Source: Escherichia phage nieznany. From it: a stretch of 64,000 nt of DNA. The DNA lies in sequence record NC_052659.1. One strand, 5' to 3'. Made by a program: the position numbers and the translations under genes. The notes beneath the pieces are model-generated. The model was not told the origin of the DNA, ran no database searches, and saw only the letters and a program-made list of their open reading frames with translations. Below are positions 25,782-35,796 of the stretch, piece by piece (position 1 is the stretch's first letter; each line of letters begins with the position of its first letter).

Positions 25782-26216
25782 ATGTTACAAGTTCCTGCTA
25801 AGTTTGTTGAAGGCGCTATCCACTCTTACCGTCAAACATGTAAGAGGGCAAGAAACTGTTTAGATGGTCTGGTGGCAAAAACCTATACTGTTGAAAAGAA
25901 AAAACGTTGGTTTGGCAAAGATGTTTACGAAGTTAATATTTTTGGTGAACATAAACTAAACCACGATACTCCTGAAAACATGTTAGAAATATTTCTAAGA
26001 GATGACAAAATATCTCCTATGGATTACCAACTTTTAAAATTTTATGATTCTTCTTTAGCTATTGATAAGTTTGTTGAAGATATTCTGTCTAGAAAAACAG
26101 ATAAAAACACTTATCCTCTAGAGGCTGATCAAATAGGATTATTAAACGAGATTTCATCCTTTAAAGAGTTGGATAATATTACAAAAGAGGAGATTTTAGA
26201 TGGCATTAGATTATGA
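25782..26216 (+). CDS. hypothetical protein
   Basis: 144 aa ORF. Confidence 0.45.
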   Translation: MLQVPAKFVEGAIHSYRQTCKRARNCLDGLVAKTYTVEKKKRWFGKDVYEVNIFGEHKLNHDTPENMLEIFLRDDKISPMDYQLLKFYDSSLAIDKFVEDILSRKTDKNTYPLEADQIGLLNEISSFKELDNITKEEILDGIRL

Positions 26217-26709
26217 TCGCCCAACGAGCGATTATTATCCGACACCGCAAAAAGCAATCAACAGTTTGTTTAGTGTTATAGATTTCAAAAATCTAAAGGA
26301 AGAAGGTTGGGTTTTTGCAGAACCTTGTAGAGGTGAAGCTGAAGCGATTTATCGCCATTTTCCTGAAGGTTCAGAATATTGTGAACTTGAAGAAGGTAAA
26401 GATTATTTTAGTCATGAATGGGAAAATCGTCCCGACATTATAATCACAAATCCTCCATTCAAGTTAGCAATGGAGTTCTTGGAAAAGAGCTTAAAAGAGG
26501 CGGATGTTTGTATTTATCTTCTTCGGTTGGGCTTCTTGGAGTCAAAGAAACGACGAGAGTTCCATCAAAAGAATCCACCAACAAACCTTATAGTCCTTTC
26601 AGAACGGCCTTCGTTTGTTGCAGGTGGAACAGATAAGACAGCATACGCTTGGTATGTATACGACCCAAAGAATCGTTTGGGCCTCTCTCAACCATTTTAT
26701 TTTGTTTAA
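26200..26709 (+). CDS. phage Dam-like N6-adenine DNA methyltransferase (small form)
   Basis: IITNPPF motif IV; size about 170 aa typical of small phage Dam family. Confidence 0.5.
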   Translation: MALDYDRPTSDYYPTPQKAINSLFSVIDFKNLKEEGWVFAEPCRGEAEAIYRHFPEGSEYCELEEGKDYFSHEWENRPDIIITNPPFKLAMEFLEKSLKEADVCIYLLRLGFLESKKRREFHQKNPPTNLIVLSERPSFVAGGTDKTAYAWYVYDPKNRLGLSQPFYFV

Positions 26710-31796: not shown

Positions 31797-32738
31797 ATGG
31801 TGTTAATTGGTAGCCGTGCATTACAAATTCATGCTATGGATATGGGAAAAGACTTGTATCGCCCTTGTGTAGATTTAGATTACCTCTGTACAGAACAAGA
31901 ATGGGAAGAATTATCAAAAATGTTCTCTCAAGATGAGTTTGTTGAACTTGTAGAGCGTAAAGGGAACAAGGGCCATGTCAAAATGATAGCTGGTGCACAT
32001 TTGGAATACGATATTGCTTCTCAAGGAGATAGCACAGAAGCTTTGATTAGTTATTGTGAAGACTCTGATGATATTCGTCGAACTTACGCTGGACACGTTG
32101 TTGCTCCTTTAGATGTGCTCTACCTTCTTAAAATGAGTCATCGTTTTAAAAAGGATAGTCCTCACTTCTTTAAAACTATGAAAGATATTCATTTCATGCG
32201 ATCACTAGGCGCAAAGATCCCAGAAAATCTTAAGAGTATTTATGAGTTGCGTGAGAAAGAAACATACACTTACTCTCATCCAAACTTAAACGTGAGAAGT
32301 AAAGACTTCTTTAAAGGTGATGAGGTTCCGTATGTTTATGATCATGACTCTATTCATGAAGCAATCGCAGTAATGGATGCTCCAGCATATAAATCTTATA
32401 TGAAAGATGGAAGTGAAGTTATGACCAGCAAAGAAAAGTTTTTTGCTCAACCAAAACATGTGCGCCTGTTAGGTGTTTATGAAGAAGCGTGTGTTTTGGC
32501 TTTGGAACGTTCACAAATTCCTTTCGGTGAAGAGATCGGAGGTCCAACCCCTAAGCAAAGTTTTATGATGGCTTTATCTAAAGTTTGCACATCTATCACT
32601 AGTGGTTGGTTTAGGGAATATGCTTGGGAGAACTTTTATATTGTTACTAAACTATATGAAAACATGGGTGAAAACGACTATGTTGAACGTTTTAAAGCTA
32701 ATCGACATGTAGTTAAGCCTTTTGAAGGAGGTTATTAA
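31797..32738 (+). CDS. hypothetical protein; possible nucleotidyltransferase-fold (GS...DxD) - weak
   Basis: N-terminal LIGSRALQ...CVDLDYL loosely resembles a minimal NTase motif; 313 aa. Confidence 0.4.
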   Translation: MVLIGSRALQIHAMDMGKDLYRPCVDLDYLCTEQEWEELSKMFSQDEFVELVERKGNKGHVKMIAGAHLEYDIASQGDSTEALISYCEDSDDIRRTYAGHVVAPLDVLYLLKMSHRFKKDSPHFFKTMKDIHFMRSLGAKIPENLKSIYELREKETYTYSHPNLNVRSKDFFKGDEVPYVYDHDSIHEAIAVMDAPAYKSYMKDGSEVMTSKEKFFAQPKHVRLLGVYEEACVLALERSQIPFGEEIGGPTPKQSFMMALSKVCTSITSGWFREYAWENFYIVTKLYENMGENDYVERFKANRHVVKPFEGGY

Positions 32739-32739
32739 T

Positions 32740-33135
32740 ATGTGTGGATATCTTTCAGAAAGTTATTTCAAAGTGACGCATGAGGATTTAGAAAAAGCAC
32801 GATTGAAATTGACAGCTATTATTGAATACTCTAATACTGTTGATCACAGATTAAAGACTACTAAAGTATCTGTTCCTTGTTGGTTAGGTTTACGGCATAA
32901 AACAATGTCTCAACATGATCATGTTGTTCGAGAGATGCATGGTTGGTGTTGGTTTCACGATGTGGCTTTGCATTTTGGTTATATTACAGAAGAAGAACAT
33001 AGATTCTGTGAACTAACGTATCGTATTCCAACCCTTCACGATCTAGATTTGTGGAAGAAAGCAAACGAGATTTTTCTTACAGAAAGTGATTGGCGTAAAG
33101 TTATGGCTTGTCTTGAATGGAGGGGTAATGAGTAA
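32740..33135 (+). CDS. hypothetical protein
   Basis: GAAGGAGG then ATG 32740. Confidence 0.4.
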   Translation: MCGYLSESYFKVTHEDLEKARLKLTAIIEYSNTVDHRLKTTKVSVPCWLGLRHKTMSQHDHVVREMHGWCWFHDVALHFGYITEEEHRFCELTYRIPTLHDLDLWKKANEIFLTESDWRKVMACLEWRGNE

Positions 33136-33811
33136 AACAGTTTTGTCTATGTTTGACGGATCTGGGATCATGGTGTTACGTTATGCTGAAGCAGGTCACA
33201 AGTGTTTTTGTGTAAACGCTGATGAAGGGGACCACGGTAAATACGAGGTTAGGATGGAGCACCCAAACATAACCTATGTGAATGCTTGGATAGATTCTAC
33301 ATTCAACCCTGAAGATCATGGAATACCTAAACCCGATATTATTTTTGGATTTCCACCTTGCACTATGTTAGCAGGTAGTGGTAGCAAACACGAACGCAGC
33401 ACAGAGGAATTAGATGAAGCTTTAGCTAATATTCGTGTAGTGGAAGCTTTGGGTAACAAATACAATGTTCCTTGGATGATTGAGAACCCAGTAGGTAAAC
33501 TTTCAACCTTATGGCGTAAACCCGATTTTTACTTTGATCCTTATGAGTATGGTGGGTATTTGTTTGAAGAGGAAGGAAGCTTTCATCCTAAAATGCCTAC
33601 CCGCGATGGGTATACAAAGAAAACTTGTATTTGGCACGGGAATGGTTTTGTTCAACCAGTGAAGAAACCAGTAGATCATATAGGCTGCTTCTGGGGTTGG
33701 AAAAGCTTAGGCGGAGCTAGTGCAAAAACAAAACAACTTAGATCACTAACCGCACGTGGTTTTGCTCGTGCAGTGTTTTTGTCTAACAATCTTCTAGATA
33801 AGGAGAAATAA
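33128..33811 (+). CDS. minimal C5-cytosine methyltransferase-like protein (catalytic core motifs, no obvious target-recognition domain)
   Basis: Motif I FDGSG, motif IV GFPPC, motif VI ENP(V)G in canonical order within about 130 aa; total only about 227 aa. Confidence 0.45.
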   Translation: MSKTVLSMFDGSGIMVLRYAEAGHKCFCVNADEGDHGKYEVRMEHPNITYVNAWIDSTFNPEDHGIPKPDIIFGFPPCTMLAGSGSKHERSTEELDEALANIRVVEALGNKYNVPWMIENPVGKLSTLWRKPDFYFDPYEYGGYLFEEEGSFHPKMPTRDGYTKKTCIWHGNGFVQPVKKPVDHIGCFWGWKSLGGASAKTKQLRSLTARGFARAVFLSNNLLDKEK

Positions 33812-34464
33812 TGTCAAATTCCAAACCAGTAGTTGCTTATCAAGTAGATCGTAATGATGGTGAAGGAAGTGTTGTTATTTTCAGTACACACGGTCTTGAG
33901 GCTCGTCGAAAAGGTGCGTATCGTTTAGAATGTGAGTTTGAAGACTGCACAAGCCACCGTGTCAAACAATTTGATCAATATGCAGATAAAGGTTTTGTCC
34001 CTATCAAAGCCTTGCTGGAAGATGGTTGGTGGGTATATTCCGCTTTTGACTACTCAAAGTTGGAGGAGTCAGCTTCGTGCGCATCCGAGATCGAATATGA
34101 TGATTACTATGACACTCTCTACCTTCCAGAATGGCTTGTCTTTTCCCCTGATGAGAGAAGCGTCTGGAAAACTTGGGAAGAAATGGAGAGACATGCATAT
34201 AGCATCAATGAAGCCTTAGATCGTAAAGCTTGGTTTATTGAGGCAGTAAAGGCGGCATACCCTCAATTTTCATTCTGTGATTTCACTGGTGGCCCAGGGT
34301 ACATTACACATACAGCCTCTTTTGAGTTCCCTGGTTCACGTTATAAAGGTAACGTTTATTGGGATTGGGATGAAAATAAACAACCTTCGGCTCAAGACTT
34401 CCGTTGCTATGTTTGCCAAGGTGATCAAGAAGCCCTTGACAAATACCTACAAAGTCTGGTATAG
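33811..34464 (+). CDS. hypothetical protein
   Basis: 217 aa ORF, TAATG overlap. Confidence 0.45.
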   Translation: MSNSKPVVAYQVDRNDGEGSVVIFSTHGLEARRKGAYRLECEFEDCTSHRVKQFDQYADKGFVPIKALLEDGWWVYSAFDYSKLEESASCASEIEYDDYYDTLYLPEWLVFSPDERSVWKTWEEMERHAYSINEALDRKAWFIEAVKAAYPQFSFCDFTGGPGYITHTASFEFPGSRYKGNVYWDWDENKQPSAQDFRCYVCQGDQEALDKYLQSLV

Positions 34465-34522: not shown

Positions 34523-34996
34523 ATGTTTCAAGTAAATGTCAATGTGCATAATAGTTACTCTGATTGTGAGACGTGTGGCTATAATTCATCTAATGTTGTT
34601 CGTATTAGTGGCGATTTAGGAGAAGCTTCTTTTGGAGAAGAAGCAAGTTGCTTTAGTGGTATGGATGCAGAATGGAACGATATTGCACATTGGTTGGTGA
34701 GCAAACTAAAAGAAAAAGAGAAACCATTTCCTACTCTGCTTGATCGTTCTCTTGTAGAAGATGCAGGTAAAGCATATGCAGACTATGCGTATGCAGACGG
34801 GAAATATTTGGAAGATGATAAGGCTAACCATTTGCTTTATGTTTACTATGAAGCTGAATCTGCCTACGATAATTATTATAGCATGTCTAACATCCTACGT
34901 CTGTTTGCAGAGTTTGATATTTATTTCGAAGTAGAATTTTCAGAAGATGATACTTACGAATATGATTCTTATGATCCATTTGAGGAGGACGAATAA
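34523..34996 (+). CDS. hypothetical highly acidic protein
   Basis: 157 aa ORF, D/E/Y-rich C-terminus. Confidence 0.45.
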   Translation: MFQVNVNVHNSYSDCETCGYNSSNVVRISGDLGEASFGEEASCFSGMDAEWNDIAHWLVSKLKEKEKPFPTLLDRSLVEDAGKAYADYAYADGKYLEDDKANHLLYVYYEAESAYDNYYSMSNILRLFAEFDIYFEVEFSEDDTYEYDSYDPFEEDE

Positions 34997-35796
34997 TGCC
35001 AAGACGTGTATATTTTATTAGTGGTGCGGGACTAAGTGCTGACAGCGGAATCCAAACATTTCGCACAGAAACAGATTCTGGAAAGGCATTATGGGATGAA
35101 TACGATTTAACAGAAGTCTGTGACATTTTCAACTTCCGTGACGGTTATCAGCAAGAACAGGGTATTCCTGATGCTATGGGTGGCTTAGATGTGGAAGGAT
35201 ATAACCTCTACCGTAAAACTCACGACTTCTACAATAAACGTCGCGTGGAATTAGAGAAAGTTGACCCGAATCCAGCACATCTTCAGATTGGAGAATGGTT
35301 CGAAAAATACGGTGCAGAAAGGATTATTAACATTACTACTAACGTTGACGATCTATTAGAACGCGCTGGAATCGATAGAGAAGAAATATTGCACGTTCAT
35401 GGTTTCTTGCCAGAAGTTGTTGTTGATAACAAAATTATCAAAGATGTGGGTTACGCAGCTATTGATGTAGACGATTACAAATATGTGAAGCCTAATGTGG
35501 TGTTTTTTGGTGAGAATGCACCACTCTACACAGACATGTATCACAAACTGGATCAACTAACATCACAAGATATGGTTATCGTTGTAGGCTGCTCTAACCA
35601 AGTAATCAACTTCAACTGGGAACTCTTCCCTGCCCTGAATATTGGGGTTAAGATGGTTGTAGTTAACCCAGGTTTGAATTTTGTAGAACAAACTCTCTAC
35701 GAAGAACGTGGAGTGCTTGTCTACCGAGAGAAAGCAGGAACAGTCTTCAGTGATGAAGGCTTTATCAAAATGGTTGAAGACCATTTAAACAAATAA
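34996..35796 (+). CDS. Sir2 (sirtuin)-family NAD-dependent protein, lacking the zinc-ribbon cysteines
   Basis: GAGLSADSGIQTFR (GAGIS..GIPxFR), TTNVDDLLERAG (TQNID), catalytic HVHG, VVFFGE, VVGCS. Confidence 0.7.
   Translation: MPRRVYFISGAGLSADSGIQTFRTETDSGKALWDEYDLTEVCDIFNFRDGYQQEQGIPDAMGGLDVEGYNLYRKTHDFYNKRRVELEKVDPNPAHLQIGEWFEKYGAERIINITTNVDDLLERAGIDREEILHVHGFLPEVVVDNKIIKDVGYAAIDVDDYKYVKPNVVFFGENAPLYTDMYHKLDQLTSQDMVIVVGCSNQVINFNWELFPALNIGVKMVVVNPGLNFVEQTLYEERGVLVYREKAGTVFSDEGFIKMVEDHLNK

Follow-up and report, generated by a model that had tools for sequence, protein, structure and literature searches.

Sequence comparison places the gene at positions 33128–33811 of the 64,000-bp stretch of Escherichia phage nieznany DNA analyzed here (NC_052659.1; the whole 64-kb stretch is called the window below) in phrog_757, a large phage family of short, "Dcm-like" DNA cytosine-C5 methyltransferases, and its predicted product is probably an active DNA 5-methylcytosine (m5C, 5mC) methyltransferase. 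A preliminary description, made from the sequence alone, had pointed to an open reading frame (ORF) of about 227 amino acids (aa) at this place; its coordinates were confirmed, with the ATG at 33128–33130 and a TAA stop codon ending at 33811.

33128–33811, plus strand: coding sequence of the Dcm-like short DNA cytosine-C5 methyltransferase (227 aa, stop codon included in the coordinates)

Family Membership and Protein Length

The 227-aa protein matched the phrog_757 profile ("DNA methyltransferase") with an E-value of 1.8e-84, aa 1–225 aligning with profile positions 13–223 of 247. With tblastn, 1,486 phage records were found to contain homologs, among them phages of Escherichia, Klebsiella, Salmonella, Shigella, and Vibrio; the genomes of the phages carrying them range from ~40 kb to >160 kb, and the annotated homologs are named cytosine methylase or Dcm. 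A search of 1.84 billion cluster representatives returned 965 clusters, formed at 50% identity, with a limit of E ≤ 1e-3; with E ≤ 1e-10 there were 380.

Nearly all of the full-length members listed for the family comprise 200–260 aa, and in the family alignment the length varied from 209 to 260 aa with a median of 236. For comparison, M.HhaI, M.HaeIII and the catalytic domain of DNMT3A contain 327, 328, and 285 residues, respectively. The 227-aa protein has no additional domain. As the members are uniformly short, its small size should be considered a norm of the family and not a truncation. The original characterization of the product as C5-methyltransferase-like, unusually short and devoid of an ordinary target-recognition domain (TRD) is thus backed by family membership, as well as by the fold search described below.

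The short methyltransferase module was also revealed in the BFVD database as one domain of two proteins from uncultured Caudovirales, A0A6J5SE15 (1397 aa) and A0A6J5NPY6 (1126 aa); one of the two bears the annotation "Helicase/UvrB, N-terminal" (template modeling [TM] score 0.62–0.69, query-normalized; 24–26% identity). The module may also work when fused to motor proteins.

Conserved Motifs and Segments

Conservation was scored on an alignment of 63 sequences with a mean identity of ~38% to the query. The following features were distinguished in the coding sequence:

33152–33166, plus strand: motif I FDGSG (aa 9–13), the loop binding S-adenosylmethionine (SAM); resembles DNMT3 motif I SLFDG in the hhalign comparison with DNMT3A
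33347–33361, plus strand: motif IV GFPPC (aa 74–78); the codon of the catalytic nucleophile Cys78 is at 33359–33361
33482–33490, plus strand: motif VI ENP (aa 119–121); Glu119 is the presumed cytosine-N3 protonating residue
33536–33610, plus strand: conserved segment PYEYGGYL...HP..P.RD (aa 137–161); P138 invariant, Y144 conserved in at least 90% of the family, top-residue frequency 0.53 on average
33611–33640, plus strand: motif VIII-like block YTKKTCIWHG (aa 162–171); Y162 and W169 invariant, K164 and T166 at least 90% conserved
33662–33721, plus strand: variable loop (aa 179–198), defined from conservation by segment (alignment columns 250–290)
33728–33778, plus strand: C-terminal block K201..R205-S-L-T-A-R-G-F-A-R-A-V-F (aa 201–217); R205 invariant, the family positions P209, G211, and A215 at least 90% conserved

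The three motifs FDGSG, GFPPC (with the catalytic Cys) and ENP, noticed already in the preliminary description, do occur in the canonical order I–IV–VI, and in alignments they coincide with their counterparts in HaeIII, Dcm, and DNMT3A. Nine positions of the family alignment are invariant (C78, G85, E119, P121, P138, Y162, W169, P177, and R205), and others are conserved in at least 90% of the sequences (F75, P76, N120, Y144, K164, T166, P209, G211, and A215), at one of which, aa 209, the window protein has Ala in place of the Pro of the family. Since the residues of motifs IV and VI are invariant or nearly so, a chance occurrence of the motifs is excluded. In motif I, the glycines vary in part of the family.

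Conservation in the C-terminal half of the protein is no lower than in the N-terminal half, whose variable stretch comprises aa 31–68. A large variable TRD between motifs VIII and IX is absent; only ~33 residues (aa 172–204) are found there, including aa 179–198, a 20-aa loop whose length varies in the family and which is the sole variable loop of the C-terminal half. This loop could modulate specificity. The conserved segment aa 137–161 is located between the predicted strands aa 134–136 and 166–171 and represents a candidate DNA-contact element in place of the classical TRD.

The two blocks that follow this segment have possible counterparts in known enzymes on alignment paths of low confidence. 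The Y162-x-K164-K-T166-C-x-W169 pattern falls on the DNMT3A motif VIII RARYFWGN on a low-confidence hhalign path. The C-terminal block, which is motif IX-like in its sequence and leads into the terminal helix aa 210–224 of the AlphaFold model, is placed on RRLTPRECA of Dcm by one hhalign path and on the TRD loop KVRTITTRS of DNMT3A by the other, neither placement being statistically supported. A phmmer search of the Protein Data Bank (PDB) with the C-terminal consensus found nothing. Similarly, when the PDB was searched by sequence, either with the protein itself or with the profile of its family, matches were confined to aa 4–92 and had non-significant E-values, and the PADLOC models of C5-methyltransferases matched weakly (best E = 1.2e-4) in the N-terminal half.

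Predicted Structure

An AlphaFold2 model built from an alignment of 69 sequences had a mean pLDDT (predicted local distance difference test) of 93.6 and a pTM (predicted TM score) of 0.91. Foldseek matched it to DNMT3A/B with an E-value of ~1e-8 and a probability of 1.00, and in the viral structure library the best matches, reaching a TM of 0.94, were further "DNA-cytosine methylases" of phages, likewise short. In the fold search DNA C5-methyltransferases outscored Dnmt2. According to the model, the protein has the fold of a C5-methyltransferase catalytic domain; the possibility of a different fold, which structure prediction had been proposed to check, did not materialize.

The similarity to DNMT3 was also seen at the profile level. 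Comparison of the family profile with the DNMT3A catalytic domain by hhalign (the DNMT3A sequence was verified to be identical to PDB 5yx2_A) gave an E-value of 8.7e-5 and a probability of 60%, significant over motifs I–IV only, and the SLFDG and PC-T-D-L patterns of the family resemble SLFDG and PC-N-D-L of DNMT3. With E. coli Dcm, taken as a single sequence or as an alignment of Dcm from viral contigs, the probability was 1.3–1.6%; this template profile is shallow, the viral contigs having given only close relatives (64–100% identity), and its alignment paths serve as hints only.

Relationship to the Methyltransferase of KarlJaspers/K42

A characterized relative of the window protein is encoded by phage KarlJaspers (Bas06, MZ501090). 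Its "Dcm-like C5 cytosine methyltransferase" bas06_0055 (QXV82308.1) was found by BLASTP to share 50% identity with the window protein end to end, over aa 5–220 (E = 1e-71). bas06_0055 has the same 711-bp length and the same C82/E128/K175/K176 numbering as Dcm of K42, the KarlJaspers/Bas06 strain used in the study of retron Ec86. These four residues correspond to C78, E119, K164, and K165 of the window protein, in which all of them are kept.

All four K42 escapers isolated on retron Ec86 carried lesions within the 711-bp dcm gene or just upstream of it (bioRxiv 10.1101/2023.08.16.553469). Expression of K42 dcm alone from pBAD was toxic only in retron-carrying cells, and in the same system, with no other phage genes, it increased the 5mC content of the retron multicopy single-stranded DNA (msDNA) as measured by LC-MS (liquid chromatography coupled to mass spectrometry); the quadruple mutant C82A/E128A/K175A/K176A produced neither toxicity nor a rise in 5mC (bioRxiv 10.1101/2023.08.16.553469). 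K175 and K176 were structurally aligned to DNMT3A by the authors of that study (bioRxiv 10.1101/2023.08.16.553469). The preprint was later published (Cell Rep 2024;43:114857); the facts given here are taken from the preprint.

Another protein, gp52 of Pantoea phage AAS23, described by its authors as a DNA cytosine methyltransferase without a conserved domain, was matched by HHpred to a Dcm structure at 99.7%, and in digests with restriction enzymes AAS23 DNA behaved like DNA methylated by Dcm. It is at most a candidate member of the phrog_757 family.

Several points weigh against regarding the window protein as an active methyltransferase. First, the Pfam profile PF00145 covered aa 4–92 only and gave 11.6 bits (E = 0.18) against a cut-off of 22, that is, below the gathering threshold. 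Among 120 listed homologs a precomputed PF00145 match was present in P0064 only. Second, NCBIfam gave no match for the 227-aa protein. Third, neither a QxRxR motif VIII nor a GN-type motif X is recognizable in the protein, which ends after helix 210–224. The C-terminal ~100 aa were earlier stated not to resemble motifs IX/X; the C-terminal half is nevertheless not without features, as it has motif VIII-like and IX-like blocks. Fourth, at aa 30 (33215–33217), at the end of strand 2, the window protein has Asn at a position occupied by Asp in at least 90% of the family; the acidic residue of motif II that binds ribose is located at this position. Asn at the end of strand 2 was also found in KarlJaspers Dcm and in P0122, and, as K42 Dcm is active, Asn30 appears compatible with activity. 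Finally, we infer the activity of the window ortholog from 5mC data that concern K42 Dcm on msDNA only.

Target Sequence and Site Avoidance

As to the recognition site, CCWGG, the site of host Dcm, seems to us slightly better than an even choice. In the msDNA stem, the changes of CCTGG to AATGG, ACTGG, or CATGG abolished defense (bioRxiv 10.1101/2023.08.16.553469). The occurrence of candidate sites was analyzed by comparing observed and Markov-expected counts in the whole window and in positions 1–50000 of KarlJaspers:

CCWGG: window, 91 observed and 84 expected; KarlJaspers, 125 observed and 121 expected
CCSGG: window, 0 observed and 8.8 expected; KarlJaspers, 2 observed and 11.7 expected

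Other palindromes depleted in the window (observed/expected) were CTGCAG (0/12.4), GGATCC (0/9.8), and CTSAG (8/46.8), as well as GGCC (27/76.5), CCGG (26/62), and GTAC (83/182); GATC (Dam) and CCWGG (Dcm) occurred about as often as expected. The same contrast was revealed in KarlJaspers, with several 6-bp palindromes at zero. The escape of CCWGG from avoidance gives weak, circumstantial support to CCWGG as the target; against this it should be said that protection by host Dcm could equally explain it. Genome-wide replacement of cytosine at the nucleotide level was also considered and was rejected, as the persisting avoidance of restriction sites speaks against it.

A possible, if rather unlikely, alternative is that the product is an active DNA C5-methyltransferase with a specificity differing from that of host Dcm: it might modify the outer C of CCWGG, read a shorter or relaxed motif, or prefer hairpin or single-stranded DNA, which would not be surprising for so small a recognition module. 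The closest fold is that of DNMT3, which reads only CpG, and the protein has no classical TRD and a single variable C-terminal loop of 20 aa. MG1655, the source of the msDNA, contains the dcm gene. Two facts from the K42 study count for this alternative and against the assignment of CCWGG: the CCWGG site of K42 Dcm was assumed from host Dcm and the msDNA motif mutants rather than mapped directly, and msDNA from dcm+ MG1655 contained little 5mC until the phage enzyme was expressed (bioRxiv 10.1101/2023.08.16.553469). The latter is odd if the phage and host enzymes share their specificity, a point not addressed in the preprint text consulted. The mention by the authors that Dcm in itself is toxic also counts for the alternative (bioRxiv 10.1101/2023.08.16.553469). 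The low methylation of msDNA could reflect a phage specificity unlike that of host Dcm, but shielding of msDNA or enzyme dosage could account for it as well. Other evidence against a differing specificity includes the loss of defense upon the changes in CCTGG, the Dcm-methylated behavior of AAS23 DNA, and the site counts in the two gene-carrying phages, where CCSGG is avoided and CCWGG is not.

Proposed Mechanism

Taken together, the data are best explained by the gene product being a SAM-dependent and self-sufficient DNA cytosine-C5 methyltransferase of the phrog_757 type. By the established chemistry of C5-methyltransferases, Cys78 of the PPC motif would attack C6 of a flipped-out cytosine, Glu119 of ENP would protonate N3, and SAM, bound in the FDGSG loop, would donate its methyl group to C5. 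K164/K165 and the conserved C-terminal blocks would hold the DNA, and the short segments conserved throughout the family, aa 137–161 and 172–204, would stand in for the large classical TRD. If these conserved segments replace the TRD, the whole family probably shares one recognition mode.

With CCWGG, the Dcm site, as the likely target, the role of the enzyme is likely to be to pre-empt CCWGG-directed restriction in those hosts, or under those growth conditions, in which Dcm methylation by the host is absent or incomplete. Its liability would be that it acts as a trigger sensed by retron Ec86 (Retron-Eco1).

More tentatively, and with considerable doubt, it can be hypothesized that the family represents the smallest self-sufficient architecture known for DNA C5-methyltransferases (~210–240 aa), lacking a classical TRD and a recognizable motif X, with a conserved recognition module and a specificity maybe unlike that of host Dcm. 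Such a specificity would explain why strong methylation of msDNA in a dcm+ host was observed only with the phage enzyme.

Other Possible Activities of the Protein

Three further suggestions, all of them contained in the preliminary description, fared poorly. According to the first, the protein is an incomplete enzyme needing a partner; it would be a catalytic subunit with a separate DNA-recognition or activating protein, like DNMT3A with DNMT3L. The protein is indeed short and lacks a recognizable motif X and TRD, its best structural match, DNMT3, works as an oligomer, and its gene overlaps both neighbors (32740–33135 and 33811–34464). Nevertheless, K42 Dcm expressed alone raised 5mC and triggered the retron, and when positions 1–50000 of the KarlJaspers genome (51.5 kb in total) were examined for homologs of the five flanking proteins, none was found, the methyltransferase alone being shared; both adjoining genes and the other flanking genes among these five belong to PHROGs of unknown function and are not methyltransferase-related. 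The activity of K42 Dcm alone and the absence of shared neighbors argue against a phage-encoded partner, and we consider the dependence on a partner very unlikely. A host-encoded partner or homo-oligomerization may still play a part.

The second suggestion, a fold repurposed for other C5 chemistry, could mean transfer of another group, e.g., carboxymethyl from carboxy-S-adenosylmethionine (Cx-SAM) as in CmoX, giving 5-carboxymethylcytosine. CmoX possesses SPPC and an Arg replacing N304 of HhaI, to be compared with FPPC and the invariant Arg205 of the phrog_757-type family, and Cx-SAM is supplied in E. coli by its own CmoA. We regard this as highly improbable. LC-MS detected 5mC itself for the 50%-identical homolog, and the motif is FPPC, not SPPC. 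R205 is at most a candidate equivalent of R350 of CmoX, hhalign having aligned it with motif IX in one case and with the TRD loop of DNMT3A in the other. Furthermore, DNMT3A also has an Arg, in its motif X GRSW (verified in the sequence); this Arg lies where HhaI has N304, yet DNMT3A transfers methyl groups. No CmoA was found among the five flanking genes, the rest of the window not having been searched for CmoA or CmoY.

The third, a C5-methyltransferase acting on RNA (tRNA, Dnmt2-like) or on a free nucleotide (deoxycytidine monophosphate, dCMP), is just as improbable, given that DNA enzymes outscored Dnmt2 in the fold search, that the homolog methylates msDNA, and, for the nucleotide enzyme, that restriction sites are strongly avoided in the window (CCSGG, CTGCAG, and GGATCC at 0).

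The Gene and Its Surroundings

The source of the window is a Phapecoctavirus, a phAPEC8-like myovirus of E. coli. The ~4 kb surrounding the gene show 99% identity to phages AV126 and KKP 3954 and 91% to phAPEC8. The gene is already catalogued, the same gene being present in the sister isolates phAPEC8 and ukendt: their proteins (YP_007348443.1 and YP_009986795.1, respectively) are identical to the 227-aa product, and a public label exists in RefSeq, "DNA methyltransferase", with the additional note "Dcm" in ukendt. At the nucleotide level, 12 differences from phAPEC8 and 12 from ukendt were found, with 0 amino-acid changes in both cases; 12/12 differences from phAPEC8 were scored as synonymous, giving a ratio of nonsynonymous to synonymous substitution rates (dN/dS) of 0. 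Therefore, this is a real coding gene under purifying selection.

33119–33123, plus strand: Shine-Dalgarno sequence GGAGG, 4 nt upstream of the ATG, read from the sequence

An alternative GTG start at 33086 was considered and rejected in view of GGAGG before the ATG at 33128, of the N-termini of the family, and of RefSeq, in which the same ATG is annotated as the start in ukendt and phAPEC8. The start of the methyltransferase ORF overlaps the end of the upstream ORF (32740–33135), and its stop codon overlaps the ATG of the downstream one (33811–34464).

Farther from the gene, the following ORFs were observed:

31797–32738, plus strand: 313-aa protein with DUF7277 (aa 1–87) and DUF7275 (aa 107–297), phrog_2141; two genes upstream
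34996–35796, plus strand: 266-aa Sir2-family protein (PF02146, E = 1.4e-20; phrog_2162, E = 1.1e-96); two genes downstream
26200–26709, plus strand: second short methyltransferase-like ORF, 169 aa (phrog_799 "DNA methyltransferase", E = 2.8e-59)

The arrangement with the Sir2 gene is also annotated in phAPEC8 and ukendt, and close relatives have a Sir2-like gene in the matched region. The 169-aa ORF covers only positions 206–373 of the 458 positions of phrog_799 and has no Pfam match; it is annotated as "DNA methyltransferase" in ukendt (gp156) and may be a fragment or another minimal enzyme. No tRNA or tmRNA genes were found by ARAGORN in the window.

Significance

The gene can be annotated with good confidence as a phage Dcm-like DNA cytosine-C5 methyltransferase, and there is no need to assign it the status of an orphan fold. 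This implies that the DNA of Phapecoctavirus is probably self-methylated at cytosines, which matters for restriction evasion, for the prediction of host range in phage therapy, and for methylation-aware sequencing. In addition, retron Ec86/Eco1, whose defense is set off when enzymes of this family methylate DNA, may sense these phages. What is still of interest in the protein is how ~230 aa that lack an ordinary TRD and motif X read DNA, and which sequence they read. If the enzyme proves specific, its compactness could make it a minimal scaffold for engineering.

Comparison With Known Enzymes

CmoX, the phage DNA cytosine C5-carboxymethyltransferase (PDB 8yf3; 333 aa in the crystal chain), is defined by SPPC together with R350 and is usually encoded next to CmoA and CmoY (PMC12783734). 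Membership of the window protein in this group was rejected on the grounds of FPPC in place of SPPC and of 5mC as the product of its homolog.

Compared with E. coli Dcm and enzymes of the M.EcoRII type (PF00145; 472 aa; Shigella ortholog 3lx6/3me5), the phage protein has less than half the length and possesses neither the large TRD nor the QFGNSV motif X nor the N-terminal extension. Its identity to the catalytic domain of DNMT3A/DNMT3B (PDB 6u8p, 5yx2) is 15–18%. DNMT3, with ~285 aa, has a clear motif X, GRSWSVPV, whereas the phage protein, with 60 residues fewer, has nothing beyond the motif IX-like helix. DNMT3 reads CpG with its TRD loop and works as a hetero- or homo-tetramer.

Of the enzymes compared, KarlJaspers Dcm belongs to the same family and has the same architecture: it contains 236 aa (711 bp) against 227 aa in the window protein, and the C-terminal block RSLT(P/A)RGFARAVF is common to both. 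The two phages themselves differ, KarlJaspers being a siphovirus of the Drexlerviridae and the phage studied here a myovirus of the genus Phapecoctavirus.

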